NCBI GenBank assembly: GCA_023920165.1
Contig: CP089275.1
Span: 2,852,001-2,916,000, forward strand
DNA: 64,000 nt
Direction of reading: 5' to 3'
From: Curvularia clavata
Lineage: Eukaryota
The translations under genes and the position numbers were made by a program. This document shows positions 18,353 to 41,732 of the stretch, one piece after another. The notes beneath the pieces were generated by a model. The model had not been told where the DNA came from. It searched no databases and saw nothing but the letters and a program-made list of their open reading frames with translations. Within the stretch, counting starts at the first letter, position 1, and each line of letters begins with the position of its first letter.

Positions 18353-18372
18353 TGACGCGAGCGAGATTCGAA
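18353..18372 (-). pseudogene. Isolated tRNA 3' fragment (T-loop, 3' T-stem, 3' acceptor strand, discriminator A); left border of the island
   Basis: Minus strand reads TTCGAAT CTCGC TCGCGTC A, then a T-rich trailer (about 18288-18352) similar to the trailer of the intact tRNA at 24197-24280. No 5' tRNA half is adjacent. Confidence 0.7.
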
Positions 18373-18726
18373 ATCTATGAGATGAAATGTAGAAAGTGCT
18401 GTACTCAGCCCAGCCCAGGAGTGCGCGCGTTGTGGATCTGTCTTACTTTGCCGTGAGACAAGGCTAAACATACAAAGTAGTTTACAGTGCACATAATTCT
18501 CAGCTATGATGGGAACTTGAAGTTGAATATTACGTAGAGCGATTAATCACCACCGTCTTGTGTGTATGGGAAGTGACTGGAATCTGCTTGTTTGCTGGTG
18601 TGCTCGCGAGAGTATTGATGCTTTGTTTTATCCAGGTAAGCCTTCTCTTGAACATTAGCGACGAAACAAAATCCAACAACTCAACTAGCAGATTCTCTGC
18701 AAAGTCGTCGAGTCGCGCATGACAGG

Positions 18727-19584
18727 ATGCCAAGAAGAGTCAGTGATAGCGACAGCGAAGATGAGATTCCCATCCCCATCGGGCCAGCCACAGAAGCAGC
18801 ATATCGTTGCTTGTTCCCTTTTCGAAATGTACTGCTCCACACACGACTTCATGGCTGCTCTAAAATGCTGGTAGTATGCCCCCAAGAGTGCGATTCGGTT
18901 GTTAAAACACTCAGAGACATTATTCGATGCAGCGCAACCGGCTCTGGAGGCAGTCTGTTAGCCGTATACCACGAACCATCAACATTGCCGACGGTTGACA
19001 CGATTCGCAAGAAGCTTGGCCCACAAATTGGAATTTCTAGTCTCGACGCCGTCCTTGTCTTTGGATATGAGAATGCGCAGCTTGGTGTGACTGAGCTGAA
19101 GATTAAGCGTTGGATAGACGGCCTTGCCGATTTAGTACGGTCAGAATACCGCCCGATGGAGGGACAAAGATACCTTTCTCAGATTGAGCGTTTTAGAGGG
19201 CTCCTTTTCGTACAAATGGCGCGTCTGCCTCGTGAACTCTGGCAGCATGCCGCAAGGCGATATCATGGCCTAGTGCATAAAATGGGTCTTCGCCTAGACT
19301 CTGTCAACTCGCTCCGTGGTTCAAATCTGTTTGACATTCGCATGACGGCCATGCGCCACAAAAACCTGGCTCAAAGTCTTGCCAGGATACTAGATGGACA
19401 TCACGAGAGATTCATTGGGTATCTTAGAAAGCATGGTCAGACCCTAAAGCCAACATTTCTCGGCCGTGGGAGGAAGCTTATCGAGGACGGTGACGCCATG
19501 GTTGGTATCTTCATCCCTGATGAAAGCGCAGCCAGTGCAGAGACTTGGTGGGATTTGGTTGAACCAGTGCCGATAAGGAATTGA
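18727..19584 (+). CDS. Hypothetical protein (285 aa), possibly a degenerate Rossmann/methyltransferase-like fold
   Basis: Uninterrupted ATG ORF. Alternating strand/helix pattern (SLDAVLVFG...LADLVR...GLLFVQ). The fold call is weak. Confidence 0.55.
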   Translation: MPRRVSDSDSEDEIPIPIGPATEAAYRCLFPFRNVLLHTRLHGCSKMLVVCPQECDSVVKTLRDIIRCSATGSGGSLLAVYHEPSTLPTVDTIRKKLGPQIGISSLDAVLVFGYENAQLGVTELKIKRWIDGLADLVRSEYRPMEGQRYLSQIERFRGLLFVQMARLPRELWQHAARRYHGLVHKMGLRLDSVNSLRGSNLFDIRMTAMRHKNLAQSLARILDGHHERFIGYLRKHGQTLKPTFLGRGRKLIEDGDAMVGIFIPDESAASAETWWDLVEPVPIRN

Positions 19585-19632
19585 AGAAGAATGTATATTA
19601 CTTTGTATAAGACTGCCATAGATATTCCGTGT

Positions 19633-21762
19633 TCAAGGTATTGCGTCTTCTTCCTGATTGTCGACATCAACAAAAGGCATCGGCTCAGCGAACATGCGTG
19701 CGTGTTTTTCAGCCAGACGTTGGTGCAAAGCCTGTATGGTAACCCGAAAGTTGCTAGGCCGGCGATTGTAATTACAGGGGTGCGTGAAATGGTTAATGCC
19801 TGCAAACTTGTCAAGCAAAACCCAAAGTCCACTCCATGCATCGCTTCGATTGTCTAATATCCTTGGGCCGCCCGAGCCTACTATGTAGTCGGCTGGGTTG
19901 AACCCGGTGTGTATCAGTTCAGCAAGCAGAGGCACCCGTTCTTCAAAGTCCGCATCCTTTTTGAGTTTACGGTTGGAGGTATACAACTCTTGTTGCGCAT
20001 GCGTTGGACTAATGTCGCTTGTTGGTATAACGAGCAGAGGACTATATAGACCTAGCCCGTCTTGGTTGAAAATGTCAAATATCAGCAGCCGGTCTTGAGG
20101 ACTTTGATTGAGTCTCTGGAATTCCGCGGTTGTAAGCCTCGGCCCACGAGACGTGCCCTCTTGGCTGCGAGAATATAGGTGTATTGGTACGACGGGAGTG
20201 TTGGGAGGCAGCTGGGTGATGGTGCAAGGAGGTGTGTTGCTTGCGAGGAACGCATCTTTTTGGCTCTCAGTCCACCGGTACCGACAGTAAGCCAAGTCTC
20301 CAAAAGGATGCCCACGAGACAGTACTATGAGAAGACCAGAACGACGAACAGCACACTGGGCTGTGATGGTGTAGAACAGTCGGTTGGTGAAATGGTCTAG
20401 CTGGGATGTCGGCGGAGCTGCAATTGCATCTTTGGGCTCATCTTCAGACTTTTTGAAAAGGTTTTGAGAGCGTCGTCGGGGCCTATGATGAATTTGGCGG
20501 GGGTTTGGAGTAGTTTGTATAATGTTGTACACCTCCTTCACCCAATCTCCCGAGTCATCCAGAGCGATCCGATAAGGCTTGAAGTCTTCTCGATCAAAAC
20601 TAGCATCCTTGGCTTCTGTCGTGTAGAATTCATCTGGCAGTACACTTTCAGGTAAAAAGAAGAATTGTGTCCACGCCAGTTTCTGTCGGTCTTGGTAGTC
20701 GAATTGATACAGGAGATAATCAAACCTAGCCCGTATTGTTAAGCAGCCTGTTTTTTTTTGTAGAGACGACAAGTCTTACCGTTCGTAGTCATTGAAGTAG
20801 TAGTTTACCTCGCCGTTTCGACCATTTCGAGCAATAGCCACTTTGGCCAGTGGCGAAGCAGGCGAGCGGTATTTCGCATCAATCTTGTATTGAACAAATA
20901 ATTGTCGGCGCTGGTTGTGACTTTTTGAGTCTGGCACCAAAAGCTTGAAGTCGGCAAGGTGCGGTTGTAGCCACATGAAGTCAAAGTCCATGGGTATGCC
21001 ATGGAGCCACTTTGCTGCGCGTATGCCTTTCCAAAATTGTACAAGTCCTCTAAACGAAGTAAAGTGCTGGGAACTCTCTTCTGGCATGAGTCCGTCATTG
21101 TCGTGTTCAACAGATGGGATCCAGTCATGAAACGTCACCCGAGTCCAGGGATTGCTGTAAGCGCCTTGTCCTTGCGCGCATCGTTGGATACGTGCGAGCG
21201 CTTCTGGGAGGAGTCGGATTGGCATTCGATACGGGCTGTTGCATGGGCTGAGCGAGTCGTACGCTGAAGGTGGCAAACGCGGCTTCCGTGAAATGTTCAC
21301 GGCAACGTTGCGCTTCTCATTGTTGTCGAGCAAAGTCCCGGCGCGGTAGTTTGGGATCAGCTCTACGTAATCGGGATTAGCAGCGCATATGCCAATATAA
21401 AATGCCACTCGATTTTGCTGCTTCACCGAGGTTTTGTATATCTGGTCCTCGGCCTTGCCTGATATCTTGCTCTTTGCATCAAACAGAACCAGGCGCCGTT
21501 CAGAGTGTTTAGGCCCATGGCGATATCTGCGCACATGCTCATTGAGCTGCCAGAATCGCTCACCAAAGGTTCCTATTGGTGGCGTAGTATCGGTGGTTGC
21601 AAAGATTGCACCATCCGCAGGTGCAAACTCAAAGGACCGGATAACAAAGGGACACTCGAAGAGGACCGCAAATAGTTCAGCTTCGAATCGTGCGCCAGAA
21701 CGCCCGGTAATAAAAGAGGAAATTTGTGAAAGAGGTTGACAGTCGTACTCGGTAGGCATCAT
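19633..21762 (-). CDS. Island paralog A: ~691 aa protein with tandem PD-(D/E)XK-like (restriction-endonuclease-fold) motifs
   Basis: ORFs 20776-21885 and 19633-20772 join in frame via a 54-nt GTAAGA...CTTAAC...TAG intron (20726-20779). Motifs SGARFEAE / PADG / LFDAK and QPHLADF / FVQYK. Collinear with the 25254-27281 protein. Confidence 0.7.
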
Positions 21763-21935
21763 GATTTTGATACGCGTTGGCAGTATACAGTGAGGTAGGG
21801 TAGCAGTGTTGAAAAAGATGGGTGAAAACAGGCTGCCACGAATCACTGTTACACACGTGCTAGCACAACAAGCAAGGTAACACAAGGATCAATATTTCTC
21901 TATACGCGTTGGCTATGGTACGTTCTGCTAATCCT

Positions 21936-22718
21936 CTAGGTATTCCAAAAGTAATGTGAGATGCGTAAGAACCAGCTTATGGTTGGTCGAGGGCGCTCAA
22001 ATGGAGCCCGAGGTGAAGACGATTCTACAACTGGCGCATCTTGTCGTCGCTTGTGATGGCCCCCTGAGATTGCTGCACTCGACTGTCGTCTTTTCCTATC
22101 AGATGGCGCGACAGGCGGTTGGATGGTTAAACGGTATGCTGATAGGCAGGCATGGTACTCGCTGGTGGTGTTTGGTAGAAGAATCTTGAATTTGATTCCG
22201 GGTTCTTTGCCGATCCGGATCGTCATCGGTGTAGGGACCTTGAGCGTGTCGTTTGGAGCAACCACCTGTACATCTTCCTGGAAGTGAGACATGACATAAA
22301 GGCCTTGAGAGCATGTAGATCTCAGTTGGAGATGGGGATCATGATCATTGATGAACAAGATAAAGTGGTGTGGTGCTACTCCCTCGGACGAGGGCAGTAT
22401 ATAGTCACTTGATCGAGACGTACCAAAGGACAGGCAGTGGCGTCCTGCGACGGCTCCAAAGGTGAATCGGACAAGCCTGGACTTTGAAATGACCTTGCCA
22501 TCTTTGGTGCATTCAGTACTCAATCTCACGTACCGCATGTTGGGCAGTAGCAGTGTCGATGAGTGTGCACACGGAGACAGTGGCACCAACTCTGCAAAGA
22601 AGGGGAGGTGGGTAGAGGATGACATTGGTGCCTGGTAGAGTTCAGCAACTCCAAGGGCTTTTATTGCACTAATTTCATGTCTCAATTGTCTAGAGTGGAA
22701 ATTCAGAGTGTCTCGCAT
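21936..22718 (-). CDS. FHA-like domain protein with basic NLS-like tail (start uncertain)
   Basis: LSFGTSRSSDYILPSSEGVAPHHFILF...LRSTCSQGLYV follows FHA spacing, but the G-R, S-x-x-H and N-G residues are altered. RKRR and KRR occur near the C-terminus. Confidence 0.6.
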   Translation of the reverse strand: MRDTLNFHSRQLRHEISAIKALGVAELYQAPMSSSTHLPFFAELVPLSPCAHSSTLLLPNMRYVRLSTECTKDGKVISKSRLVRFTFGAVAGRHCLSFGTSRSSDYILPSSEGVAPHHFILFINDHDPHLQLRSTCSQGLYVMSHFQEDVQVVAPNDTLKVPTPMTIRIGKEPGIKFKILLPNTTSEYHACLSAYRLTIQPPVAPSDRKRRQSSAAISGGHHKRRQDAPVVESSSPRAPFERPRPTISWFLRISHYFWNT

Positions 22719-22776
22719 GCGCTTTGTATGTTTTTAAAATGTAAGACAAGCACAAATGTCGGCATCTGGCATTCCC

Positions 22777-23738
22777 TCATTGTTCGTCCGCTTGATCTGA
22801 TGCCTTGGCTCGCGACGGCAATCGATGTACGCGGACATCCAGCCTCGACTGGGGCTCGGAAGAATCAAAGCCCAAGTCAATACCCAGCTCTGGTTGTGAT
22901 GGTCGCGGTAGCAACCAAAGGAGCTGCCCACAGGTCATACTTGACGGCGTCGTCGCAGGATGGCAAGCAGCTATAACGGCGTCATAGAGGTGTTCGAGGG
23001 TCGGTTGCTCGAATCGTCCCAGCCGCTCATCTTTGGAACCGCCATCCCAAATTCCACGTGGCTGGCCAAGCCGCTGCGCAGAATCAACGCCTGTACGCTT
23101 GCGAGGAGGGCGGCCAATAATAGCGCCAAGATCTGCCGTTTTGCCAAAGTATAGCGGAGCTGCGCGAAGTATAATGAACGACGCCTGCTCTGTTGAGTAG
23201 AGTGGATATCTACAGTCTGACGCAACTTGTATGCAGTATAGCGGCGTGGCCTCTGGAGGCGGGTTGAGTAAAAAGTCGCACGCCATAAAGCGCGATCGGT
23301 GGGGCGATTGGAAGTAGTCGGTCTGGGCAGACTCGGTCCATGTATAACGCATAAATACGAGAGAAGGAACCGATGCCCTATGGGATCGTGAGCAACGACC
23401 AGGCCAGTTGATCCATGTGTATACCTCAGGCTGTCGGCCGCAGGGCCACGATTCTTTGGATCAAACATCTGCTTATTCCAGCTGTTCCGACTCGGTAGAA
23501 ACATGAAGAATCCAGCGCCTCGCAACACCGCAATCTCGTTCAAGGCTAGCGCGTCAATCTCGTTGGGGAGCAACGGCCGATCGTTGGCGCCATCATGGGT
23601 TCTGTCGCGGACTTGCTGCCGGATATGACTGCTAAGCTCTTCTCGCCAAAAGTACCGCTGCGAAGTAGGAATCTCTCGTAGCCTGAGCAGTGTCTTGGCG
23701 CCTGATGCCTTGCTGACAGGATCGTCCGCAGTCTCCAT
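22777..23738 (-). CDS. Island paralog B: shorter protein related to the C-terminal module of paralogs A and C
   Basis: A 47-nt GTATAC...GCTCAC...TAG intron (23378-23424) joins ORFs 22971-23816 and 22777-23352 in frame. AVLRGAGFFMFL...FMRYTWTESAQ matches AVRRSGLLIVL...YCRYRWTESQK in paralog A. Confidence 0.6.
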
Positions 23739-24102
23739 ACCGCGATGCTGGTGGGGTGATGGGGGTAGGTCGAAGCTACGCAAACCTACAGTCTCGGCCC
23801 CGCACCCCAACACCACTCCAGACTATCCGGCCTCTAAAGTATCCAATCGCAGCTGTTTTCTCCAAGAATTTATACGTATAGTGCCATAATACTATAGAAA
23901 ACTGCGTACAAATTTTAAAGGACAAGTATAGTGTAGTGGCAGCTTTTTGAATTTTGGTGTTGTAATCGCTGTCAGACTGAGGCCCAAGCTTACACCCATT
24001 TATCCTGTAATGTTGAGGCTGTAATACGCTGACTGCTTTGGAAATTTCGCTATCTATAGGAGATTTGATTTTCAAACTTAGTAAATGTATTGTTCTTCCC
24101 CC

Positions 24103-24196
24103 GACATTGTGGCCGAGTGGTCTAAGGCGGTAGATTTAAGCTTTGCTGAGATCTCTACTCCAGAAATGGGCACGCGTTCGAACCGCGTCAATGTCA
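24103..24196 (+). tRNA. tRNA-Leu (anticodon UAA), intact, with a 12-nt intron
   Basis: Acceptor GACATTG/CAATGTC, A-box TGGCCGAGTGG, anticodon stem GTAGA/TCTAC, loop TT-TAA-G, intron CTTTGCTGAGAT, variable arm CCA-GAAA-TGG, T-arm ACGCG-TTCGAAC-CGCGT, discriminator A. Confidence 0.93.
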
Positions 24197-24201
24197 ATAT
24201 C

Positions 24202-24219
24202 TTTTGCTACTTTTTTTTT
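24202..24219 (+). terminator. RNA polymerase III terminator (T-runs) of the tRNA-Leu
   Basis: TTTT and then a T9 run directly 3' of the tRNA. Confidence 0.7.
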
Positions 24220-25253
24220 GGCGTTGTTTTGGCGTTGTTGTGGTGTTTTTTGCGTCGTGGTGGGCGGGAGTTGAGTTTTTCGATACACACCCAACACCCA
24301 ACCAATGAAAGCCCAGACGAGCATCAACGAACACGATATAGTGCGGAGACGCGCCGCCTGCAAGTATCAAACGATTCACTTCATGTTTTACCTGCAGTTG
24401 GACTTCATCATTCGGGTTTCCATATCGTATGCCGCGTGCCTTTCTGCACCATAGCATCTTCACGAAATCTCGCCGCCGCACATGCGAGTCTACGTGTTAG
24501 TCGTACCAACACGGGAACTTCCAAGCGATGCTTTTGTCTCGGCGGGGCTGCAAAACGGCTGCAAACATGCGTCGTGGATGTGTTTGACCGCTCCGTCCCA
24601 TGTTGGCCTCAGCATTTTCTCGGTTTGCATGTATTCCTTGAAAATTATCTTCTTATACAGAGTATTTTTGAAAGACGTAGTCAATCATAAACACTAGACG
24701 GTCTCGTTGCCTGTTTTTGCTGGCCTTGGCAGTGAGGCTGAAACCACCAGAACAGGACTATCAAGCAGGAAGTGATCTGTACACAAACAGGATAACCTGC
24801 ATATGCAAAGGAGTTTCGGCTATGTGCTGCTTACACAACCTTAGACTATTGGTCTGGAACTGCATGCATATCACTATAGCGGCGTTGCATGATACGCAGT
24901 CTTGGTCTAGCCTGGCTGTGCTTGGCAATTGAAGCGCTTGACGGAAGCATGCTTCGTGATGGTAGGGACCAAAGCTTTCCAATCCGTGACTGGCCTGGAC
25001 AATTCAAACTTGTTGGTCTTAGCGTTTCTCAAGCAGATGCAAGAACCTTCTGGTGATCGAACAGTGGTGGTCTTCTAAGTCCTTTGGTTTTAATAGCTCT
25101 GGAACTCTGCAAAGTAACTTCAAGCTCAAATTCAACTTCAACTTTAATCTCAACCTTTCCACGCTTTTTTTAAGCCTTTCGAGTACAAACCTGCCAGTCA
25201 TATTAGCTTATACTTCCTAGTACTAACTTTGATAGAAAGACGCATCAGCTGCC

Positions 25254-27281
25254 ATGACACCTCCAAGCTCAAAAGAAGTAAAGCCAAAAGCCGCGGTTGG
25301 TCGACTCCCTGCCATTAGCGGATGGATCACGGAGTGCAATGCATTCCGTATGCTAGCCGGAGCCTGCATCCAGGGATTCAGGGATCACGGACAGCGGATT
25401 GGCGTGATTAGAGGTACTTTTATGGATATCAAATACGACGAATTTCAAAGTGCTAACTGGGGATCATCAGGGCCGGATTTCAGCGAGCTCGATGGAGGAC
25501 TCATCTTCGATCCGCCAGAGGGATTCCCCATGAACATGGACCCTTCTGCTGTATGGACTTGGGTCAATGAGCATCAGCAAGAGCAGAATCTGCAAACCGT
25601 ACCAATTGACATCAAGCTCAACATCACCGCTCGACAACGTCACCAAATTGCACCCTTGTTTATAGTCGCGCCACCTGGAAATACCAAAATCCTGTGCTTG
25701 CTACCCATCAGGAGCTACACAGACCTATACGCAAATGTCAGATTGGCATACCAGGACTCGTGGGGTGCTGATAAAGACAAGTCGACCAAAACGCATCGAT
25801 TGCGGCCGCGTGAGCCTCTGCACGTCAGCAATATCTTGGCGCCATTTGCGGTACATGAGTGCGACCTCTTTGAAGCACTGCTGAGACTTCGAAATGCGTT
25901 CAACGGAAAATCTCCTTATACCAATCCCTCTAACGGCGTCACATTACGAGGTTGGACGCCGCAAGCACCTGATCCCAACCTTGAAAAGTTGATGATGATA
26001 CAGGGGGAAACGCAAAAGTATTCGGCTGGTATCATCCAAAAGCTGGCTCAGACTCTTCGCTCTCGGACAGAGTGTGATATGGAGCTCTTGTTCAATCTCG
26101 TACAACCCTTGGCATGCGACCTAGTGCTTCGGGACAACGCGTCGTCTACAACGTATCTCATCGAGCACAAGGTGAATGCACTTAGAGAATTTTATTCTGA
26201 CAATGTCTCTCTAAGCCTAAAGCCCGAATGGGCAAAAGAGGAGCATAATTGGCATTTTCTTCTTCACCAATATGGCGATTGGGTCACGATTCACACAAGG
26301 GGAGGACACAAAGCTGGAAGTAATACGCCAGCAGTTCGTGTCAATCTCAAGAGCCCTGGTGCACTATCTACGATTGCTACCACGATACGCCGCCACGGAG
26401 TTTTGGCCAAACAGAGACTTCGAGCCAAGTGGCGATCCTTGGATGTGTACGAGGACAGCCTGTTGGATGAAGAGAGTCAGCCAACAGAGCCAAAGAAGAG
26501 CCAGAGTCAATCCTTGAGGGCAGCCGGGAATGAAATGTTCCGTATAGCATTTTGCGATGCCATCAACAACCAATGTTTCAAGCTAGGAAAACACGCTTGC
26601 ATTCTTCTAGAGGGCAATGCTTGTGGAGACGCAGCAATGATCCGACACGACTGGACAGAGCGCGATCAATCTAGATACAGATCTAGTAGAATCCTGCCAG
26701 TCTCTCTTGTGGATGGTGCGAAATCAGGATCTTCAGAGGCGCTTATGCTAAGATTCATTCCCCACTTCTGGACTCCGGGTACATCGTCTTCGCGAATATT
26801 CGATCCTGCACGCATTAGGATGATCAAGGTACCGCCGTGTCTCGGCCAGGCCTTCGTTTATGTTGCTGCGACAATGAGCTCTCCATCTGCACATCAAGAG
26901 CCTTTTCTTGACAAGGTCATCCTCTTGCCTTCAGGAGATACAGATTGGTTAGCCAAATTCGATGGCTGCAGCACCTGTGATGATGAATCGGAAACGAGAG
27001 ATTGGAAGCCGACCGTTGAGTCAGTTTGCGAAAGTCAGGGTGGGGGTAAGCCTGGGAGCTCGCTCATACAGCTTCCCTTTTTGAACCAGCATGCGCAGCC
27101 ACTCCATCAAGTTTACGATTTCGACGATGGCTCAGTACATGGTCGTCTCGATACCCTTTTGTGTGAGGAAGGCTCACCATATGTCAGCCAAATCTATGGG
27201 CCAAATGGGTTGCTTCAACGGCAATGGAACCACGGCAGTCCGAGAGTACGTAACACCGACTCTCCTGAAATTCGCAAGTAA
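25254..27281 (+). CDS. Island paralog C: 675 aa protein with tandem PD-(D/E)XK-like motifs
   Basis: Single ORF. Motifs SGWITECN / ELDG / PIDIK and QPLACDL / YLIEHK. The block EALLRLRNAFNGKSPYTNP...VTLRGWTP matches EALARIQRCAQGQGAYSNP...VTFHDWIP in paralog A. Confidence 0.75.
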   Translation: MTPPSSKEVKPKAAVGRLPAISGWITECNAFRMLAGACIQGFRDHGQRIGVIRGTFMDIKYDEFQSANWGSSGPDFSELDGGLIFDPPEGFPMNMDPSAVWTWVNEHQQEQNLQTVPIDIKLNITARQRHQIAPLFIVAPPGNTKILCLLPIRSYTDLYANVRLAYQDSWGADKDKSTKTHRLRPREPLHVSNILAPFAVHECDLFEALLRLRNAFNGKSPYTNPSNGVTLRGWTPQAPDPNLEKLMMIQGETQKYSAGIIQKLAQTLRSRTECDMELLFNLVQPLACDLVLRDNASSTTYLIEHKVNALREFYSDNVSLSLKPEWAKEEHNWHFLLHQYGDWVTIHTRGGHKAGSNTPAVRVNLKSPGALSTIATTIRRHGVLAKQRLRAKWRSLDVYEDSLLDEESQPTEPKKSQSQSLRAAGNEMFRIAFCDAINNQCFKLGKHACILLEGNACGDAAMIRHDWTERDQSRYRSSRILPVSLVDGAKSGSSEALMLRFIPHFWTPGTSSSRIFDPARIRMIKVPPCLGQAFVYVAATMSSPSAHQEPFLDKVILLPSGDTDWLAKFDGCSTCDDESETRDWKPTVESVCESQGGGKPGSSLIQLPFLNQHAQPLHQVYDFDDGSVHGRLDTLLCEEGSPYVSQIYGPNGLLQRQWNHGSPRVRNTDSPEIRK

Positions 27282-27342
27282 GTAATCTGAGTGCGGTTGC
27301 TATGATCTCGCATAGCGCTGTTTATTTTACATCGGCCCTGAC

Positions 27343-28759: not shown

Positions 28760-30841
28760 ATGCCCGAATACAAAGATTCAGAGGCAGCAACCAATGCGAA
28801 AGAATTGCAAAAAGAATCTTTAGCAGCTATTCCGCACCGAAGCGAAACTTGGCAAGAGATGCGAGATCGCATACATCGGCGCTATCATGACCCACTCGTC
28901 AACCCTCGCAATACCAAGTCCTATGGTGGATTCTTTCGAGCTTTGGCAGGAGAGATTTTATCATATGCTCTTGTTTATCTGCTTGTTCCTTGGGCTATAG
29001 ATGAGCTGCTCCTCCGGTTCATTGAAACGACTGACTGTTTGTCGCTCGGAGCGATTGCTTGGGTCAAGGTATTTCGCTATTGGGCACCATACGTTGTTGC
29101 CTTGAAGGCCATGATGGGATTCGCACACAGAATCTTCCAAGGGTAAATACTCTCACATTTCTCAAGTGGTGAACTTGTTCCTGTATTTTACCACCTAGCT
29201 ATATAACGTATCATGAAAGCAATTTACTGACATTGACTTGTTAGAATACCCGATCCGTCCGTGAAACGTGTTCAAGGCACCCTTGGTATCGCGCATCATT
29301 TCGTATATGCCGTGATGACACATGGTCATCAACGTTTGTCTAGAGATGATACAAATGGAGACTTGGATCTAAAGTCTGTCCATAAGGCTTCGGCCAACTA
29401 TGAAATGCAGGTTACGACAGGATTCCAGGAAACAACGGCAATCATCGAAACAAGCGGCAATCTAGAAGCAACTCCATCCCCTATAGGTGGACTAGAGGAC
29501 TTTCCATCTAAAAGTCAGTGCTCAGAATTTGCGGCTCAAGACTGCGTCTTGGGCCACACCGTTACATCGCTATCGACCTGCCACACAAAGGACATTTCCG
29601 TTCTCGCACCAACAAATACCGGTGAGAGTAATGTGATATTCGAGACTGATCAACAATGCGACACGATTGAATGCTCAACTGCAATAGCTCATGATCAGGA
29701 ACACAAGCAGTGCTTAGAGGGGCTAGATGCTACCAAGATTGTCTTATTACCTTTAGATCAGCAGCCTCGTGCAACGCCCGCTCCAACACCGCCCAGCTCC
29801 CCAAAACTTGCTTCAAGCATTGCAGCATGCTGGAAAGAACAGCGACCACCAATGATAGTTGCCGTGCCGCGAATCAATTATATTGCGTGTACAGCCAATG
29901 ACCCGCCAGGAAGGACTTTTGACAGATCCCAGAAACTAGTGACGGTCGGACACAGCACTATAAAGATATGCCAACCGTCTCACTCCAACCAAGTCGTTAG
30001 AGAGTTTCAGTTCCCGCATGTCTTTGATCCTCTGGCAACAAATGACGATGTTTGTTTTTTCGTACGAGAAGCGATTGAGAGAGTTGTATCACACGGAACC
30101 CGATTTAGTATCCTGGCTGATGGCTATTCGGGGACGGGTAAATCGCATACGCTGTTTGAAAGTAACAACTCTATTGCTCGCTTTACTGGAGACATTCTCT
30201 TTACAAAAATGAAACTCGACGAGATTTGGTTTTCAGCGACAGAGGTAGTACACAGTAAAACCCGCGGTATCTACACCAAACCTACGAATCTTGCACTTGC
30301 AAAACCATTCGCTCTTGGGCCTGTAAAGAGAACAATACTGGCTTTCAAAGCAGGTACAGAGGCGTACTCGGTATCTTCCGCCACCCAGCTCCAGACCCTG
30401 ATCGACTACGTTGTGCAGGGTCGGGAAACGTATCCTACCGCATCCAATCAAAATTCGTCAAGGAGCCATCTTATTTGCCATATGCTTGTTCCAGTAGACA
30501 ACAGATATGGTATGATTACACTAGTTGATCTTGCAGGTGCTGAAGATGCCTCTGTTACTGAAGAGGGAAGTATCAGTCATCTTATCAATCAAGGACGATC
30601 AGAGTTCAATACACAGCTCCTCGGCTATGCCAGAAATCCGACCAAGGCGGTTTTTCGTACCGGAGAACTAGCCAAAGCATTGCGTACGGCGTTTCCTCTA
30701 CGCCCTCTAGACACCCCGGCCATGGTCTATCTCCCCCATATTAATCAGGCACAAAGCACAAAGTGTTGTTCGCAACCGCGTCTTGATATGGCGAGGAAGA
30801 TTATGCTCGCTCAAGAGGGTGCCGAAAAGAGGCGCAACTAG
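28760..30841 (+). CDS. Divergent kinesin: N-terminal hydrophobic segments, low-complexity linker, C-terminal motor domain (~659 aa)
   Basis: Intron 29143-29244 joins ORF 28760-29146 to ORF 29261-30841 in frame. Kinesin motifs FQFPHVF, P-loop GYSGTGKS, switch I NQNSSRSH and switch II LVDLAGAE. Confidence 0.8.
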
Positions 30842-31009
30842 GGAAAAGTTGCTATCGTTGAAAGGCGGTTCAAACCGGGTTTCAGTTAAGCACTGCAAAA
30901 GCACATGTAAATGGCAGAAGAAAGCGTTGGAGAACATTTCTTGTCCAGAAAATGTAGGCTACTTGAAAGCTCGGATGGAAACGCATTCTAAATACATTGT
31001 TCCATCTGC

Positions 31010-31996
31010 TCATCTCATGATGGTTTCTCCATCTTCCCACTGCTTTCGATGCGCTTTGGAGCAGAACCACTGCTGAGCGCTGCGTTCCGGTGTCATGTTT
31101 CTCCAGCGATTGCACTTGATGCCATCCGCCGTGACACCAGTGCAAAACTGGAAGTTGACTTCGTCTCGCTCGCTTTCCATCGCCGACTTTTTCTTTTTCT
31201 TTGCAGCTTTTCCAGACACAGGTAATACAACACCGCCAGCAGACAAACTAGAGCTATTGAGCTGTTCACTCTGCTTATCGCGAGTTTTTTCTTTCAACAA
31301 AGCCAGCTCATGGGGCTCATATAAACCGTTCTCAGCCCTAATCTTCTGGGGTGGGGGCACTGTGCGGCCCTCTTGGGACTTAGTGATGGAATGGCGTGTC
31401 GCCGGTGCGACATTCTCCAGAACAAGTGGTTTCCGTATGACATCGTCGGTAACAACCGCATCCTCGTGTGTTGTGTCGCTGGTTTCAACCACTCCAGGAT
31501 TCTTGTTTAGGCCCGACGTACGCCCCGCTATTTTGCTTGAGCTGGCAACTCCACAGCCTTGGTGTTGCTGATTTCGCGCGGCGGGCAGTGGCTCATGTGC
31601 AGCCGACTTCATATCCTCGTTCGTGTCCTGCAGTCTCTCGTTCGCTAATAGCTTGTCATAGCCTGGACCAAAGACCTGGAGCTTGATGTAGCAAGGCGCC
31701 AGATCCATCTGCATCCACACTATTTCTTGAGCCAACATGAAGTTTTGTATCGCGTTTGACGCGGCGGCGCTGGCCATGACGAATGACTTGCTGAGATTGG
31801 TGACGAGAACTCTGCTGCCTTTTGATTGAGCCAGTCGCTGCGCACGTTCATACACGTTGTATAAAACACCTTCGCTGAGATCGAGACTGTTGGAGATGGC
31901 AAGAGCCACATCGTTGGCGCGTGATGTCTCTCTAAAGTACCATACGACTCCGTAAGCCGTAATGGCTGTCAGACACTGTGCGTAGAGATTCGACAT
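31010..31996 (-). CDS. Hypothetical nuclear protein with a C-terminal C-C-C-H zinc-binding motif (may have an upstream exon)
   Basis: 328 aa ORF with poly-K NLS and FCTGVTADGIKC...WFCSKAH. Confidence 0.6.
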   Translation of the reverse strand: MSNLYAQCLTAITAYGVVWYFRETSRANDVALAISNSLDLSEGVLYNVYERAQRLAQSKGSRVLVTNLSKSFVMASAAASNAIQNFMLAQEIVWMQMDLAPCYIKLQVFGPGYDKLLANERLQDTNEDMKSAAHEPLPAARNQQHQGCGVASSSKIAGRTSGLNKNPGVVETSDTTHEDAVVTDDVIRKPLVLENVAPATRHSITKSQEGRTVPPPQKIRAENGLYEPHELALLKEKTRDKQSEQLNSSSLSAGGVVLPVSGKAAKKKKKSAMESERDEVNFQFCTGVTADGIKCNRWRNMTPERSAQQWFCSKAHRKQWEDGETIMR

Positions 31997-32518
31997 GCTG
32001 AGGTGGCGAGGGCGGTACTTGAGATATCGTTGTAGACTCTAAATGTGTCAGCAATGTATTTGGTCAGAGTGTTATATAGCACTCGCAGCTCACTAGGAAA
32101 CAATTTGGATTGTGGCATATAGCGCAATTACTTCTCAAGTAAAACGAATACATTTTATAGCTATAGAACCTTTTGGCACTTTGATTAGATTGACCTGAAT
32201 GACCAAACTGAAACCGTCTTACATGACTCTGCATGACTCAAATATCTGCAGCCACATTCACATAGTGTACGTCCAGGGCGCAGTCGATTGCCGGGATTCA
32301 CGTCATAGGGCCGTCACAAACGTCCAAGTCTCTCTGATCTGAAAGGAAATGCGAGTTTCTTTTTGATACAATACATGCATGAGTTGTGCCCGCTCAAGTC
32401 GCGTTCCCTAACTACACCTTCCACACGGTTAAAAAAAAACAATACCCATAGTCAACAGCGCTGGCTTCACCAAGACATGTGTTGGGAAGATGTGTAATCA
32501 CGCCGCCAACTAAACCAC

Positions 32519-33220
32519 CTATAGCAAACGAGGAAGCCTCGGAGAAAGAATCATATACCCTATACTCATATTGTCAGACGTACAAGGTACTAGAAAATCA
32601 AGTAATAAACTTACAAAAATCCTTCGAGCAGTCGAAACAACAAGGCATGCAATAAAGACGACTGGATATCCAATCAACCAGAGAAACAGTTTGATCCATG
32701 GAAGAATTGCAGAGAAAACCCCAAACATCAGAAGAGCGAAGATGGTGTCTGCTACAGATGAGTCACAGAGCATGTGGAGATATGCCCGCAGCTGCACACC
32801 TGCCTGGACGGTAGTCTGGCCAATCTGATAGCCTTGCATCAAAACCATCGGGGTTTGGCGCAGGAGATCAATCATGGCTGTGGTGACAGCAGCTGCGTAA
32901 TTAGCCACACTCTTCGGCAAGGCATCCAGAGATCTGAGCAATGCATCCATGGCCTGTTTTGCACTTAGCACAGCTAATTTGAGATCAAAATGAGGATTTG
33001 GATGGCTTACATTGCTATCCGCGATAGCAGCCCACATGGCCCTGGTAGTAGGACTGATGCTTGGCTGTGGAAGGCGCTCTAGCCAAGCCATTGCATCATC
33101 TGTCAGGTCGAGATGATCGTCCATGTATTGTAAGATGCTGCCTTTGGAGTGCTCCAAGGCAAGTACGAGGGCAAGGGATCCCGTAAAGGTCATGAAGACA
33201 GTGACCATTGTTGAAGGCAT
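32519..33220 (-). CDS. Hypothetical membrane protein (signal-like N-terminus, C-terminal hydrophobic helices)
   Basis: 233 aa ORF with hydrophobic stretches at both ends. Confidence 0.55.
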   Translation of the reverse strand: MPSTMVTVFMTFTGSLALVLALEHSKGSILQYMDDHLDLTDDAMAWLERLPQPSISPTTRAMWAAIADSNVSHPNPHFDLKLAVLSAKQAMDALLRSLDALPKSVANYAAAVTTAMIDLLRQTPMVLMQGYQIGQTTVQAGVQLRAYLHMLCDSSVADTIFALLMFGVFSAILPWIKLFLWLIGYPVVFIACLVVSTARRIFVSLLLDFLVPCTSDNMSIGYMILSPRLPRLL

Positions 33221-33731
33221 GTCGACGAATGCTGATAGGAGTTGGATGGAATGTCGGATTCTCTATGGGCTGGAAATTGATGGAAAATGGTGCTGTATGC
33301 CAAGAATCCAACTAAAGTATTACTGGAAATACAAAGAGAAACGTGTGTAGAGTGCAAGGAGTATGCATAACTTGGATAAATAACTATTCTCACTATACGT
33401 TTACAGCTAGTGAAGCATAATGTCTTGCACGCAAACAAAAGGGGCTAACATCTGCAGGTCTCATATTCTATGCCGACAGCCACTATCACTACGTGTGAGA
33501 TCGCCTTGTTTCGCTGCTAGTAGCCGCTTCAGCACAGCCCAAGTAACAAACCCAAAAAAGCGTGCGATGAATGAGCCATTGACTGCGGCTAACAAGGCCA
33601 AGTCCCACGCAATGACTGTAGTATCCAGGTGTCAGTTAGCTTTGTCCGTGCTACAAGAGTAGTAGAAACTTACACGCATGTGTCTCATGCACTGCCTGCT
33701 GTGCAGACGATGGGCAGTGTCTCAGCACGAC

Positions 33732-34148
33732 TCAGTACCTTGCGTTGTCCGCGCTTCGACCGCGCCCCACGTCAGATTGGGCCACAGAATCAGCGCCTCC
33801 TTTGGAAACCTCTTGGTGATTTGAGGGGACTTTGACGAATGCAACAATGGCTTCTTTCCATTGGTAGATCCATATCTGGAGGTTTCGCAACGGATCGAGC
33901 TCTTCGCGTGTGTCGGCAATCGCTGGGCCCGGATCGTCGCCCAAGTCTCGTGCATCTGCCTCTTTGACAAATTCCACAGCAATGTCATGGAGTATCTGGA
34001 ACTTGGCGCGAAGCGTCTCGTAATCGTTTCTGAGCTTTGCCGCCTCTGCGTGGAGTAATTCTGTCTGATTTGCTGGTTCCGCATCTGTCCACCCTGGGCG
34101 CACGGAACTGGGCGTCCATTGCGCTTCGTCGTTCTCAGACATTGTCAC
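33732..34148 (-). CDS. Hypothetical coiled-coil protein (possibly with further 3' exons to about 33460)
   Basis: 138 aa ORF with heptad-like LLHAEAAKLRNDYETLRAKFQIL; splice-like signals downstream. Confidence 0.45.
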   Translation of the reverse strand: MTMSENDEAQWTPSSVRPGWTDAEPANQTELLHAEAAKLRNDYETLRAKFQILHDIAVEFVKEADARDLGDDPGPAIADTREELDPLRNLQIWIYQWKEAIVAFVKVPSNHQEVSKGGADSVAQSDVGRGRSADNARY

Positions 34149-34324
34149 AATTGGCTTGTTATTCGAATCAAGGGAAATTACACGGTTTTCTGGATGAATC
34201 GAGAGAGGCGAGATCTTAAATCCCTGAATTGCTACATAGCGTCAGCATCCAGGCTAGGGTGCATCTCTGTATAGCAGGGTTCTCAAAATCGCTTGTTACA
34301 CTACATCTATCGAACGTCACATCC

Positions 34325-35485
34325 ATGCCTGCACCGCATCCAGATGAGATTCGGAGAAGGCTTCAAGCTGCGAGGGCGCTTGACCACAGGCCCAGTGCCG
34401 TGCGATCGGCCCTATCCGAGCACCGCCGTCACATTCTAGCAAGAAGCGAAGATATCGGTATCCCAACCAAGATGTTTGAACAGACACTCACTCCAGTTGA
34501 CAGCCCGTCTATTAAACTTGACCCCTACCGAGCCACTCATACTTCTCTCCAAGCAACAAATGTGTCTGTGGATCCCGGCTCCCTTCAGTACCCGTTACTT
34601 CCCAAAAGCCTGCAGCAAGAACTCGCCCTGCCAGAAGCCGATGGCCCTGGTAAACTTTCCAGCCCGCCACAGCTAGGTCACGTCTCATCCGATCATCCTA
34701 GGCATCTTTCCATTAGATCCCTAATCACAATTGTCACAGCTCTTATTCTTTGTACACTTTACTCGACTACACGCTTCCAAAAGTCTACTACGATCCCGGA
34801 TAGTTGGAAGGCTGAGCGTCTGGAAGGGTACATCAATGCTGTTACGGAAATTGATGTGCATACCCTTGGTGTGGACATTATGGGCCTAGTTCAAATTGCC
34901 AACAGTTCAATTGCACGCGCGGCTAGATCCGAACATGACGCTGCATTACACCTGCACTCTAGCCTCATACGCCCACTTCAGAAAGCGGACCCCCATAGAG
35001 GTCAGCTTAGAGCGCTCATGCTACTCGCAGAGCACCTACAAGAGTTGGATAGACGCGTCAACGTTACGGTTGAGACGCTGGATGCTACAAAAGTACTCGT
35101 AGATGACGCGCTAAATGTCACCCAGAAGCGCTATGACGAGCAAGTTACTTCACGATTACTATATGTGCGCGAAGCTGCCAACCCTAGAAAGGCTTCACCC
35201 GTACTGCAACGAACTGAACAAAATCTGGAGGTATATGCAATGCGCATTGCTGAGCTTGCAAACGGGACTAGGTCAATAAGTGCATTAAGCGGAATCATTC
35301 ATGACTCTAGTAGGGAGTGGAAACAATACCAACAAGAGTTGCAATGGATGTATGCGGCTGTTTGTGCGTGGCGGGAAGCTGAAAGGCTTGCGACGATGCA
35401 GGAGTACCGTGAATTAGTGAGGCGCTTTTGTACTAGTGCATTGAACGTACTAGGCGCTTTTGATGTTCCTTTGTGTAGATCCTGA
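34325..35485 (+). CDS. Hypothetical single-pass membrane protein with long C-terminal coiled-coil region
   Basis: ATG at 34325 (MPAPHPDEIRR). One hydrophobic helix, LITIVTALILCTLY, followed by a helical region. Confidence 0.65.
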   Translation: MPAPHPDEIRRRLQAARALDHRPSAVRSALSEHRRHILARSEDIGIPTKMFEQTLTPVDSPSIKLDPYRATHTSLQATNVSVDPGSLQYPLLPKSLQQELALPEADGPGKLSSPPQLGHVSSDHPRHLSIRSLITIVTALILCTLYSTTRFQKSTTIPDSWKAERLEGYINAVTEIDVHTLGVDIMGLVQIANSSIARAARSEHDAALHLHSSLIRPLQKADPHRGQLRALMLLAEHLQELDRRVNVTVETLDATKVLVDDALNVTQKRYDEQVTSRLLYVREAANPRKASPVLQRTEQNLEVYAMRIAELANGTRSISALSGIIHDSSREWKQYQQELQWMYAAVCAWREAERLATMQEYRELVRRFCTSALNVLGAFDVPLCRS

Positions 35486-36015
35486 TCAGGCTTTGGGCGA
35501 TTGAACGTAGATTCTTACAACTATAGATGATGTTAATGAGGAACTACTAAAAAGATATTTTAAAAGCCAAGTGATGAGAAAAACATGATTGATAAAGTAG
35601 CTGCATAAACAGAGAACGAGAGTGCACAGCAGGGCATGTGCGCGAAACAACATAATGTTCGTCGTGCGACCTAAAAATTACAATCACCAACGAGATGAGC
35701 AAGTCGGCATACTGAGGATTGTGGCTTTCACCACACGGATATGCAACATTAGCATACAGACAATCAACACGTTCATGTATCAGCAGACCCACTTGGATGC
35801 AGCGTGCTCTCACCAAGCACTCATGTCACCAACACACAAACTCACATGTTGTGGACATGGTCAAACATGGAGCAAGGTCTTTGTGTCTAGAAGACGTAGA
35901 ATATTCTCGGTATCTGTTCGCGTCTTGATTTAGGCTCTTGTTATACCTTATAATATGCCTCTTCTCCTGCTTTTCATGTTACTTTGATAACATCAGCGAT
36001 CAAGGACAACCAACC

Positions 36016-36991
36016 ATGAAGCGCGAAAAGGCGACTGCTACGGACCAGGATTGGCAGGATTGGCACAACAGCATCGACATTGAACGGGAGATTCTCGTGA
36101 TATACAAAGATGCTGTAGTGGACATGTTCAGTGCGAGTCCTCACATCCAATGGGACAACGTCGTTGAAAGGCTTCGGGACTTGGAGTCTCCACTCTCACT
36201 GTTCGACGGACACGAAGCGCTGCAAAAGCACGTTGAGACTACTAATATCAGGACAATACCAGCTATTGCACTGATTGCAGTCGCACTCAACAACCATGCA
36301 GTATTTCACAACCAGCCATGTAAGATTTGCCCAATCTTTTATTTCGTTGCTCACGCTAACATCCTGCATAGTCAAGTTTTGCTGGAGCAATGTCTCGCCC
36401 TCCTCAGGCGAAGAAAGCCTTTTCATGACATTTGGGGCGTGGTCGGCCAAAGAGACGGAAGACTGGAAATCTGCCAGTCCAGGATTTCGTGCAAAGTGGT
36501 GCACTGTGTGGGAGAGCGCGATCCGCCCTAGGTATGAAGCCGAGTTGTCCAAATGAGCTGCCGCTAACGAGATATGCAGCTCACGAGCAATGCGGATCCC
36601 TTATACGAGGAAAAAAACCATGGACTTCCTTCACAATACAGTCACCACAATGGACATTGGAAAGCTTACTTGGGCCGAAAGCTGTATTTCTAAACGCGGA
36701 CAAGTTCATCCTGGAGAGCTTGTCTTCATACCAGGATACAAGAACAATGCGCATAGGGGACAGTGCATGACGAGTGGGGACTTGCACGGAGTCCTGCGCG
36801 CGTATTTCCTAGAATCACGTTCCCACAAGTCATGGCATACCCTCAAGCTCCAAGCTCTCACAGCCATCCAAAACCAAAGGAGATCTGGCAAGCAGCATAC
36901 GGCGACGTTTTGGAGGGATGTGAGGGACGTGGTAGCCGGATCAGAAAAGGTCTCGCCCATGGTGAAGAAGCCGGTGGATGATCAGTCCTAG
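36016..36991 (+). CDS. Hypothetical three-exon protein with a cupin/JmjC-like motif
   Basis: Canonical introns 36320-36371 and 36532-36579 join three ORFs in frame. Contains VHPGELVFIPGYKNNAH. Confidence 0.6.
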
Positions 36992-37114
36992 ACGCCTACA
37001 ACTTCCGCTTTGCGAGCTTCTTCTATGAAGCTTCGTCACGCTGCTCAACTCCACTCCTCTTCAAATCCTTGCGATGATCCTGATCCTGTATCTCCTTCTC
37101 GTCTACAAGTATAT

Positions 37115-37474
37115 CTACAGTAAATATAAGTATGACAAAGTCAAGTTCACTTGTACATGAAGCCTACCTCGAAATTTCTTAAGAGCATCAAGTAGCGCTT
37201 GGTCTTCCTGTTTCTCTGCGTTGAGACGGTCCAGGTATTGTTGCAAGGCTTCTTTGTCACAAGCGTCTTGGTCTTCCTCGTGTGTGTTGTCGTCCTTGTG
37301 CGTGTCGTCGTCTTCATGCATGTCGTCGTCGCTGTCTTCAATCACAATGTATTCAACTCTCTGAACCAGACCGCGTATCTGGTGTTGTGCGCGTTCGATA
37401 CGTTCGCCAAGGCCCTTCTGCCGCTGCTCAATATCACCAATGATGGGGCTAACGACCTTGTCCTGCACAGTCAC
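37115..37474 (-). CDS. Small acidic coiled-coil protein with three 6-aa repeats (DDDMHE/DDDTHK/DDNTHE)
   Basis: 119 aa ORF with 18-bp tandem repeats near 37275-37330. Probably spliced at the 3' end. Confidence 0.5.
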   Translation of the reverse strand: MTVQDKVVSPIIGDIEQRQKGLGERIERAQHQIRGLVQRVEYIVIEDSDDDMHEDDDTHKDDNTHEEDQDACDKEALQQYLDRLNAEKQEDQALLDALKKFRGRLHVQVNLTLSYLYLL

Positions 37475-37542
37475 TGCAATGGTGACAAAAGCAAAGTGCT
37501 TGTCGTCCGTCTCGCTCGTGAGTCTAGCCCTGTTCTGGCTCT

Positions 37543-38049
37543 CTATATACAGTTAGAATGTGCGCTAAATTCATAATACAAAACAAAAAAACTCGTGTCA
37601 AAGTACCCACCAGTTAGGCACTCTTGCCCGGCTACCACACGGTAGATCTCATTCGCCGCTTCCAACATTCTGATTGGCATTGGTCGCAAGGCTTCGACGC
37701 AAACCATCCAATGTTCTCGGAGGTTGTAGCGATCCACTATAAGTGGGTTTGGGTCCGGTTGCTCTAGCCTCTCCATACGGTCAATCTTCTCATCATGCTC
37801 AGTGTACTGGGCGTCTGTCCATAGCAACTTCCGTGCGAGGCTCAACCATGGCTCGCTACCTTCGACGCCTGGAATGAGTCCTGGGATCACATCTTGAAAC
37901 TATCTCCTATATTAGTCATTAACAAACAAAGCATAGAAGCTGCTTACCCATGCTAGTTCTTTGCCTTCTTTGATATGCCGTTTGAGTCTGGCCATGATCT
38001 CGCCAACATCTTCCTCACCTCTGAGGTAATCGAAGAGCTCCACGTCCAT
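37543..38049 (-). CDS. Hypothetical two-exon protein, last gene of the island
   Basis: ATG at 38049 (MDVELFDYLRG...). A GTAAGC...ACTAAT...TAG intron at about 37900-37947 joins to ORF 37543-37890. Confidence 0.45.
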
Positions 38050-38229
38050 TCTTCAGAATCGTTGTATGTGTATGGCATAATGCAATCATTTAGGAGAGTG
38101 TACATAGACCTAAGGTGGGTGAATGGATACTCCCTGGAGCAAACTTGGCCTTTCCCAAACAAGATTGGCGTGGCATCACGTGATTGTCATTGCATGTGCA
38201 TGGTAGGTGAATGTTTCACCCGACTTTGT

Positions 38230-38304
38230 ACCCACGCCCATTTCTGGAGTAGAGATCTAAGCAGGGCTTAAATCTACCGCCTTAGACCACTCGGCCATGT
38301 TGCC
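38230..38304 (-). pseudogene. tRNA-Leu(UAA) 5' fragment truncated in the T-loop; right border of the island
   Basis: GGCAACA TGGCCGAGTGGTCTAAGGCG GTAGA TTTAAG [CCCTGCTTAGAT] CTCTAC TCCAGAAATGGGC GTGGG T, then unrelated sequence. No TCGA, 3' T-stem or acceptor strand follows. Confidence 0.9.

Positions 38305-41243: not shown

Positions 41244-41732
<489 letters not shown>

Follow-up and report, generated by a model that had tools for sequence, protein, structure and literature searches.

A 20-kb gene block in Curvularia clavata divides a tRNA-Leu(UAA) gene at the T arm, where related fungi have a short intron-like insert

Bacterial genomic islands and integrative and conjugative elements integrate in the 3′ half of tRNA genes, restore the tRNA by means of a duplicated 3′ end, and encode an integrase. 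The WHO elements of yeast at FBA1 disrupt that gene and bring with them a working substitute. Among the fungal Starships, 23% of 222 curated sites lie in 5S rDNA, where members of the Voyager, Enterprise and Arwing families insert, some of them in either direction at palindromic cores; a tRNA target is not reported in the available parts of the two papers (PMC11162782, PMC9156397). Here we describe a locus that shares something with each of these systems. It lies in a stretch of 64,000 nt of the Curvularia clavata contig CP089275.1 (assembly GCA_023920165.1, positions 2,852,001 to 2,916,000), hereafter the window, in which a gene for tRNA-Leu(UAA) is divided at its T arm by a block of about 20 kb that carries a whole gene for a tRNA of the same kind. 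In two related fungi the gene is free of the block and has at its T arm a short insert with the signals of a spliceosomal intron. The reading that we prefer, to which we give about an even chance, is that the block is an old, immobile-looking insertion of the cargo type at a tRNA intron site, and that its inner, intron-less tRNA is likely the working copy.

The initial annotation of the window had reported a tRNA-Leu(UAA) gene split at the T arm, with its parts some 19.9 kb apart and an intact tRNA of the same anticodon between them. Both observations are confirmed, the split by direct reading (19,858 nt between the parts) and by matches of the flank and the tRNA body, and the intact copy by ARAGORN (Table 1). 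A 19-base string of the D arm occurs exactly twice in the window, at 24111-24129 on the plus strand and 38278-38296 on the minus strand; its expected count is 0.01, and none of 100 shuffles held two copies or more. The 5′ part of the split gene runs in order through the acceptor strand GGCAACA, the D arm, the anticodon arm with a short insert beside the anticodon, the variable arm and the T-stem strand GTGGG (38235-38231), downstream of which the minus strand continues into unrelated sequence that is not tRNA. The 3′ piece contains, in register, the T loop TTCGAAT, the 3′ T-stem strand CTCGC, the 3′ acceptor strand TCGCGTC and the discriminator A. The bodies of the split 5′ part and the intact copy match at 89% over 73 nt, and the 3′ flank of the split gene (18342-18288) matches that of the intact tRNA (24225-24280) at 84% over 58 nt (blastn, E = 5e-8).

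Can the two parts still make a tRNA? On rejoining the halves four of the seven acceptor pairs form, and the T-stem strands still pair, with two G-U pairs. ARAGORN called a tRNA in none of 20 rejoined variants around the break, and for that reason we judge the split gene to be a dead relic; the idea that the halves amount to a tRNA is not borne out.

The undivided form of the gene is found in relatives. Metagenome contigs were scanned with an alignment of orthologs of the MFS transporter that flanks the block on the left, giving 13 loci (L001-L013). In two of the 13 only, L001 and L006, the gene on the other flank of the block, KEP (a protein of the Kex2-processed-repeat type), lies about 1 kb past MFS. 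The MFS protein of L001 is 99.6% identical to a protein of Alternaria alternata, and that of L006 88% identical to a Pyrenophora protein. In both loci blastn places a tRNA between MFS and KEP, on the KEP strand and opposite to MFS, all within about 1 kb and with no block. The 5′ part of the split gene matches the L001 gene at 95.7% over 69 nt (blastn). L006 matches the 3′ piece and its flank too; these align with the orthologous tRNA 3′ end of L006, and by manual count 20 of 24 bases agree over the stretch that opens with the T loop and closes 4 nt beyond the discriminator. The D-arm string is present in two of the 11 loci scanned for it. The block was thus rightly proposed to be an insertion into a syntenic tRNA gene, to which L001 and L006 and the gene order of Bipolaris zeicola and B. 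oryzae (below) both speak.

It might be supposed that the pieces are unrelated relics, a pseudo-tRNA at one end and a chance TTCGAA at the other, around a block that is simply ancestral intergenic gene content; the four of seven acceptor pairs and the failure of every rejoined form to be called would agree with this. Yet both pieces are orthologous, in order and strand, to the exons of L001 and L006 between the same neighbours, and these relatives are without the block. This contradicts the supposition, which we reject as highly improbable.

The empty allele predicted by the initial annotation exists in so far as no block separates MFS, tRNA and KEP in the relatives, but the tRNA gene is not intact, for it is interrupted in its T arm, within a few bases of the break, by an insert of 52-56 nt. 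A cut in a bare T loop, as had been envisaged, does not agree with this. The consensus of spliceosomal introns is GTAYGT, CTRAY and YAG, and fungal introns have a typical length. Both inserts open with GTACGT, have CTAAT 11-12 nt before the end, and end in CAG (L001) or TAG (L006). Their offsets differ, the L006 insert following base 4 of the T stem and that of L001 base 5 of the T loop. Neither contains TTTT, and a run of T follows the tRNA on its 3′ side, seven in L006 and eight in L001. Excision of the insert in silico leaves perfect T arms (GTGGG with CCCAC) and acceptor stems (GACACGA with TCGTGTC). ARAGORN called no tRNA in the 13 metagenome loci as they stand, L001 and L006 included, and a tRNA-Leu(taa) of 94 nt in both of these after exact removal. 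Each insert therefore combines GT-AG ends of the GTAYGT type, a CTRAY branch site and the length of a fungal intron with restoration of the product.

How readily might such an insert arise by chance? Over all the DNA analyzed, intron-like strings number 30 in 351,820 strand-bases, or one per 11.7 kb of strand, and in the intergenic regions of both loci they occur at the T arm only, with two alternative GT starts per locus. For chance to place one at a tRNA-restoring offset in each of two genera, with the offset differing between them, is very unlikely, and this favours selection on a spliced product.

U6 is transcribed by polymerase III. Tani and Ohshima are said to have described, in 1989 and 1991, introns of the messenger-RNA type in snRNA genes of fission yeast and Rhodotorula. 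The inserts resemble these in being of the spliceosomal type and in lying within the gene of a small structural RNA; they differ in that the host gene is a tRNA, the insert is in the T arm, and they are known here from DNA alone. A second comparison is with Archaea and Cyanidioschyzon, whose tRNA genes may be interrupted outside position 37/38, some by several introns, these ectopic introns being cut by the tRNA endonuclease at bulge-helix-bulge motifs (2014 review, PMC4033280); the string 'spliceosom' is absent from that review. Unlike such introns, the L001 and L006 inserts have GTACGT, CTAAT, a YAG end and a length typical of fungal introns. No bulge-helix-bulge motif is present in the minimum-energy folds of the two precursors, to which the comparison was confined, no dedicated search for the motif having been run. 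Literature searches that took in introners, and extended to articles but not their supplements, found no report of spliceosomal introns in tRNA genes.

We offer a bolder proposal more tentatively, at somewhat less than an even chance. The T-arm inserts would be a true spliceosomal intron of the nuclear tRNA-Leu(UAA) of Pleosporaceae, spliced to a working tRNA from either a polymerase III transcript or read-through from the upstream KEP; this intron would have been the landing site of the 20-kb island in the lineage of Curvularia and B. maydis; and the island's own tRNA, intron-less but with native flanks, may have arisen from a spliced transcript or an earlier duplicate of the native gene. For the polymerase III precursor we take the U6 introns to be a precedent. 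An intron in the T arm of a tRNA is more surprising than the island itself. Should the inserts prove to be spliced, we would know of no earlier messenger-RNA-type introns in tRNA genes, and one would ask how a tRNA precursor meets the spliceosome, and whether fungi make tRNAs from polymerase II transcripts. Standard tRNA finders would overlook such genes, as ARAGORN missed both.

The block of the window begins and ends where the insert of L006 does. On the tRNA strand GTGG is followed by GTAC (38235-38228), and at the other end TAG (18377-18375) is followed by two bases and then the T loop. The boundary of the block is the boundary of the L006 insert, and GT and AG are both kept, as the start (38231-38230) and the end (18376-18375) of the block. 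A further interrupted gene may be seen in sequencing run X18, which contains an organism (organism I) with flank genes 4-12% diverged from those of the window. A contig of 3.6 kb from this run matches the window at 38230-38298 only, and has an acceptor strand one base off the ancestral type. Past the T stem it reads GTATGT and then at least 255 letters that do not resemble the block; comparison by eye of the first 30 letters beyond the break with both block ends, in both directions, gave no match. The run has no cover on 24001-38229, which is not taken as a sign that the block is absent. On its sequence, the simplest reading of the contig would be that organism I has a short intron at the T arm as well, and it could alternatively be another locus. 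The offset of the insert differs among Alternaria, the Pyrenophora-like taxon and probably organism I, and this is unexplained.

The tRNA within the block is the only one that ARAGORN calls in the window, as Leu(taa). Of the two kinds of insert it has only the short one beside the anticodon, the T arm being uninterrupted, and its acceptor strands GACATTG and CAATGTC are matched. It lies 5.7 kb from one border of the block and 14 kb from the other, in the orientation opposite to that of the split gene, to which it is similar over about 85 nt of 3′ flank and, more weakly, in the pattern of the 5′ flank. Rfam at gathering thresholds gave no match over the whole window, this tRNA included. We consider that the inner, intron-less tRNA is likely the working copy, and predict that it is expressed. 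The flank of these tRNA genes has features of its own. A GT-rich stretch just past the T run is conserved at 18288-18352, 24197-24280 and L006:2580-2640, although no other intergenic DNA can be aligned among the three genes concerned (split, inner and Pyrenophora-like). Upstream, these copies also have a TATA-like and CT-rich pattern in common.

The block is not confined to the C. clavata assembly. In run X3, from an organism that we call B, one contig spans 28047-38295 and bridges the right junction, differing from the window by 194 changed letters and 45 gaps in 10.2 kb, or 1.9%. Two mixed runs, X4 and X5, contain segments of the block that differ by 3-10%; one X5 record (record 20, 37890-38257) passes the break by 27 letters and was not counted as bridging. 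In a further contig of organism B the same tRNA body runs directly into a complete T arm, and the 3′ acceptor strand beyond it fits the sequence GGCAACA. There is thus at least one further whole copy of tRNA-Leu(UAA) elsewhere in organism B. This copy has an unusual T loop that starts with A and is followed by CCCAC. The 5′ acceptor strand of the split copy, GGCAACA in place of the ancestral type GACACGA, fits the 3′ strand of this copy, which may have converted the 5′ relic.

Gene D is the member of the block that can be followed furthest among relatives. Between the window and B. maydis its identity is 75-81%, that of MFS is 81% and that of an SRP68 exon 91%. By this measure gene D would be about as old as the split of Curvularia and Bipolaris, or gained long ago. 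The block is judged to be old because it is common to an organism some 2% diverged, and because D has diverged like the flanking MFS in B. maydis. In GenBank accession order (Table 1), GATA and MFS are separated by just two gene models in B. zeicola and B. oryzae, matching ATP9 and KEP of the window, and by 15 in B. maydis C4. A second strain, BM1, has MFS as BM1_02265 and D as BM1_02275. Block genes occupy the interval between MFS and GATA in B. maydis also. Of the two D models in C4, ENI02100 is the N-terminal part (81% identity) and ENI02101 the C-terminal part (75%); in another B. maydis annotation MFS is KAJ5028129, the C-terminal part KAJ5028138 and the N-terminal part KAJ5028139. D in B. 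maydis points toward MFS and lies near the KEP side; the window has it near MFS and directed toward KEP, so that the two differ by an inversion of at least the part of the block with gene D. With B. maydis as sister of the other sequenced Bipolaris, one gain with one loss and two gains are equally parsimonious.

A history can be proposed for the old insertion at an intron site that we prefer. The block, of about 12 fast-evolving genes, would be a lineage-specific insertion in the T arm of the tRNA-Leu(UAA) that lies between MFS and KEP in Pleosporaceae. It would have landed in, or expanded, a T-arm intron that probably existed before it, and not a bare T loop. The interrupted tRNA gene would then have died and decayed, and the supply of the tRNA would now come from the inner intron-less tRNA-Leu(UAA), which has a T-run terminator of its own, and from at least one copy elsewhere. 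Delivery was probably by a cargo-carrying mobile element, of which the mobilising gene and the ends were later lost or never carried. At this locus the gain of a gene block within a small RNA gene can be seen plainly, relatives having kept the undivided form, and the case is of value for asking how fungal accessory regions arise without a known mobilising gene.

A number of points weigh against this reading. The ends of the block are linked to the L006 insert by only four bases at one end and three at the other, and the inner sequence of the block has no similarity to that insert. The term mobile element is based only on discrete borders and a patchy distribution. That a random segment of 20 kb should hold a tRNA of the same anticodon is very unlikely, and is explained only by survivorship. 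The GGCAACA acceptor of the split copy needs gene conversion, and most positions of the acceptor and T stems differ between the intact tRNA and the split gene, which is unexplained. Gene order in the named genomes is inferred from accession numbers that we assume to follow the map, and for B. zeicola and B. oryzae it is a comparison of gene order alone, in which a tRNA at the site would not be visible.

The genes of the block give no sign of a mobilising function. We analyzed 19 long frames and then all 149 stop-to-stop frames of at least 60 aa that overlap 18000-38700. With Pfam one of the 149 has real matches (Kinesin above the cut-off, and Microtub_bd just below its own cut-off), and two have sub-threshold noise. 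At E values up to 0.01 none of the 149 matches a recombinase, transposase, reverse transcriptase, integrase or nuclease family, and none has the DUF3435 domain of a Starship captain. LAGLIDADG, HNH, GIY-YIG and other nuclease families are equally absent from this set, though a nuclease of unknown fold might escape such a scan. A repeat search over 14000-43000 found no terminal inverted repeats, direct repeats or target duplication at 18373 and 38230. In these respects the initial annotation, which had found no terminal repeats, duplicated target site, transposase or captain, was correct.

How then does the block compare with the described elements? Like the Starships in 5S rDNA it is a large cargo of accessory genes that disrupts a small polymerase III gene and is patchy among relatives, and like them it has an uninterrupted site in related genomes. 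In contrast to Starships it has no DUF3435 captain and no terminal or direct repeats, and its target is a tRNA. It also differs in holding a whole copy of the type of gene that is disrupted, and in that its site coincides with an intron-like insert. A literature search on Starships, covering articles apart from their supplements, found none in a tRNA gene. With captain and end repeats both absent, we rejected an assignment of the block as a Starship. Its position in the 3′ part of a tRNA gene with tRNA function kept would be analogous to the bacterial islands; unlike those, it has no integrase and leaves the junction unrestored, the spare tRNA lying inside the block in inverted orientation. 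The disruption of a gene together with a working substitute would likewise be analogous to the WHO elements, and the inner tRNA does carry the anticodon of the disrupted gene, its working state being predicted. Unlike WHO, no homing endonuclease family is found in the open reading frames (ORFs) of the block, and there is no evidence of repeated invasion.

The earlier interpretation had gone further, and saw an active element that spreads by cutting the intact tRNA allele and rescues a lost tRNA of probably low copy number. In such a scheme a site-specific selfish element would act on the T arm of tRNA-Leu(UAA), by homing or an unrecognised recombinase, and carry a resistant replacement. The presence of a same-anticodon tRNA, improbable by chance, would then have a reason, and so would a distribution in which block genes are found in C. 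clavata-like fungi, organism B and B. maydis and not in B. zeicola or B. oryzae. The reversed D of B. maydis would fit two opposite insertions at the partly palindromic TTCGAA. The inserts lie at three nearby T-arm positions in three taxa, and two of the block genes (B and D) belong to an uncharacterised family with copies elsewhere in Bipolaris genomes. However, endonuclease, recombinase, transposase and reverse transcriptase matches are lacking in all 149 ORFs, as are terminal inverted repeats and direct repeats at the ends, which also deprives spread by cutting of its support. The divergence of D from its B. maydis ortholog is much like that of the flanking MFS, which is as expected for vertical descent and, with the age of the block, speaks against an active element. 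The short inserts in relatives have the signals of introns, not element ends. The further whole tRNA copy in the organism B run means that rescue is not obviously needed. The DNA examined, no whole genome of the fungus among it, contained no second block at another tRNA. We consider a selfish element of this kind quite unlikely, and nothing in the data points to homing. The earlier observation is confirmed, and its interpretation is partly supported.

The lack of mobility genes and terminal repeats would be expected if the block had instead entered by repair. A tRNA gene, which polymerase III transcribes, is a likely fragile site, and a break within it could have been repaired with a captured or copied segment that included a paralogous tRNA-Leu(UAA), homology guiding the repair. 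Block genes could be accounted for as copies, having paralogs elsewhere, such as the D family at 58-61% in B. maydis, B. oryzae and B. victoriae. Each broken end has its counterpart in the inner tRNA, one over 73 nt at 89% and the other over 34-58 nt at 84-85%. This homology is nevertheless not at the junctions, and by our reasoning simple strand invasion fails to give the observed order. Repair of this kind is in our view unlikely. Two rearrangements were also considered and rejected. A circular-permutation origin fails in that the halves point inward, so that deletion of the block, and not joining of its ends, restores the gene. An inversion between the inner tRNA and either half gives no simpler ancestor by reasoning, as the acceptor strands of the inner tRNA fit each other only.

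The coding content of the block is for the most part without known family, much as the initial annotation had it in calling the genes orphan or divergent; the exceptions to that description are D, which has orthologs and paralogs in Bipolaris, and ORF J, which has distant relatives. A search of 5.8 billion proteins returned 10 relatives of ORF D, with identities of 97% to a C. clavata protein of 877 aa, 78% to B. maydis, 51-61% to further Bipolaris and other proteins, and 30% to Aaosphaeria. The family is limited to Curvularia and Bipolaris except for one distant match, and its 58-61% paralogs are on other contigs of B. maydis, B. oryzae and B. victoriae. Atlas gave no usable match for D or for ORF A, and an AlphaFold2 model of gene D from a 12-row alignment has a mean pLDDT of 38.9. 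ORF B matches D only weakly by blastp among the window ORFs (E = 8e-4), and in its N-terminal half matches the D family by hhalign with a probability of 96% (E = 3.5e-9, 250 columns); the C-terminal half is weak at 21%. ORF B has a single in-frame stop at 20776-20778, which may lie within an intron or mark a pseudogene. In the kinesin-like gene the motor domain, at 29237-30838, covers only positions 29-243 of the 327 of the profile, and the other block genes are family-less.

The GC content of the block is 48.6%, against 53.6% and 51.5% in the flanks. At third codon positions (GC3) the block ORFs have values of 0.43-0.61, compared with 0.56-0.67 in most flank genes and 0.48 and 0.52 in two; the low GC3 does not tell foreign origin from low expression. 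Indices of repeat-induced point mutation over the block gave no signal of that process.

Table 1. Features of the tRNA-Leu(UAA) locus in the window and of the corresponding loci in related fungi. Positions without a prefix are those of the window; gene orders are given by accession.
Feature	Position or accessions	Strand	Basis and remarks
Split tRNA-Leu(UAA), 5′ part	38304-38231	minus	direct reading; acceptor 5′ strand to 5′ T-stem strand
Split tRNA-Leu(UAA), 3′ end	18372-18353	minus	direct reading and alignment with L006 3′ exon
3′ flank of split gene	18288-18352	minus	homologous to 3′ flanks of intact tRNA and L006 gene
Inserted block	18373-38230	.	19,858 nt; absent between MFS and KEP in L001 and L006
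Intact tRNA-Leu(UAA)	24103-24196	plus	ARAGORN; 94 nt; T runs follow
3′ flank of intact tRNA	24197-24280	plus	homologous to 18352-18288
L001 whole tRNA-Leu(UAA)	L001:12089-12234	minus	52 nt T-arm insert at 12155-12104
L006 whole tRNA-Leu(UAA)	L006:2640-2789	minus	56 nt T-arm insert at 2716-2661
ORF A	18652-19581	plus	310 aa; no Pfam family, no usable Atlas match
ORF B	19636-21888	minus	750 aa frame; N-terminal half a distant paralog of ORF D
ORFs C	21939-23822	minus	frames of 265, 227 and 283 aa; no known family
Gene D	25236-28014	plus	681 aa frame (25236-27278) and next 233 aa frame
Divergent kinesin-like gene	28700-30838	plus	Pfam Kinesin, E = 3e-21
ORF, no Pfam family	31013-32038	minus	Pfam scan
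ORF, no Pfam family	32522-33262	minus	Pfam scan
ORF, no Pfam family	33735-34241	minus	Pfam scan
ORF J, no Pfam family	34220-35482	plus	6 distant matches in 1.84 billion representatives, best 37%
ORF, no Pfam family	35929-36988	plus	Pfam scan
ORF, no Pfam family	37118-37899	minus	Pfam scan
MFS transporter, left flank	16164-17849	plus	Pfam MFS_1, E = 1e-38; orthologs 75-81% identical across Pleosporales
KEP, right flank	39006-39539	minus	translation, repeats; 74% to L001
ATP9, nuclear ATP synthase subunit c	41247-41624	minus	Pfam ATP-synt_C, E = 3e-14
GATA/Asd-4 factor, synteny anchor	43017-43637	minus	Pfam
SRP68, synteny anchor	45604-47357	minus	Pfam
B. zeicola gene order	SRP68 EUC35061, GATA EUC35063, gene D none, MFS EUC35066		
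B. oryzae gene order	SRP68 EUC43369, GATA EUC43371, gene D none, MFS EUC43374		
Neocucurbitaria sp. gene order	SRP68 028210, gene D none, MFS 028240		
B. maydis C4 gene order	SRP68 ENI02093, GATA ENI02095, gene D ENI02100 and ENI02101, MFS ENI02111		

The KEP gene is on the same strand as the tRNA and upstream of it, and encodes five repeats that end in KR. The repeats lie at 39027-39525 and are about 102-111 nt each; 337-340 nt of this stretch are missing from contigs of runs X4 and X5, and the number of KEP repeats therefore differs among relatives.

Of the other metagenome loci, L002, L007 and L013 end at or just past MFS, and L008-L012, from more distant taxa, are without tRNA or KEP, L009-L011 having been inspected for 10 kb downstream. 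L003-L005 belong to another Alternaria-like taxon, with MFS about 90% identical to that of A. alternata. There an alpha/beta hydrolase and an ankyrin gene follow MFS in place of the tRNA and KEP (L003:3020-8214, L004:4240-8667 and L005:2647-4284), so that the interval is rearranged in this taxon also. At the far left of the window (2-10580) are two head-to-head genes with myosin-head and cytochrome b5 domains, the second with a chitin synthase domain in addition, and the first extending beyond the window start.

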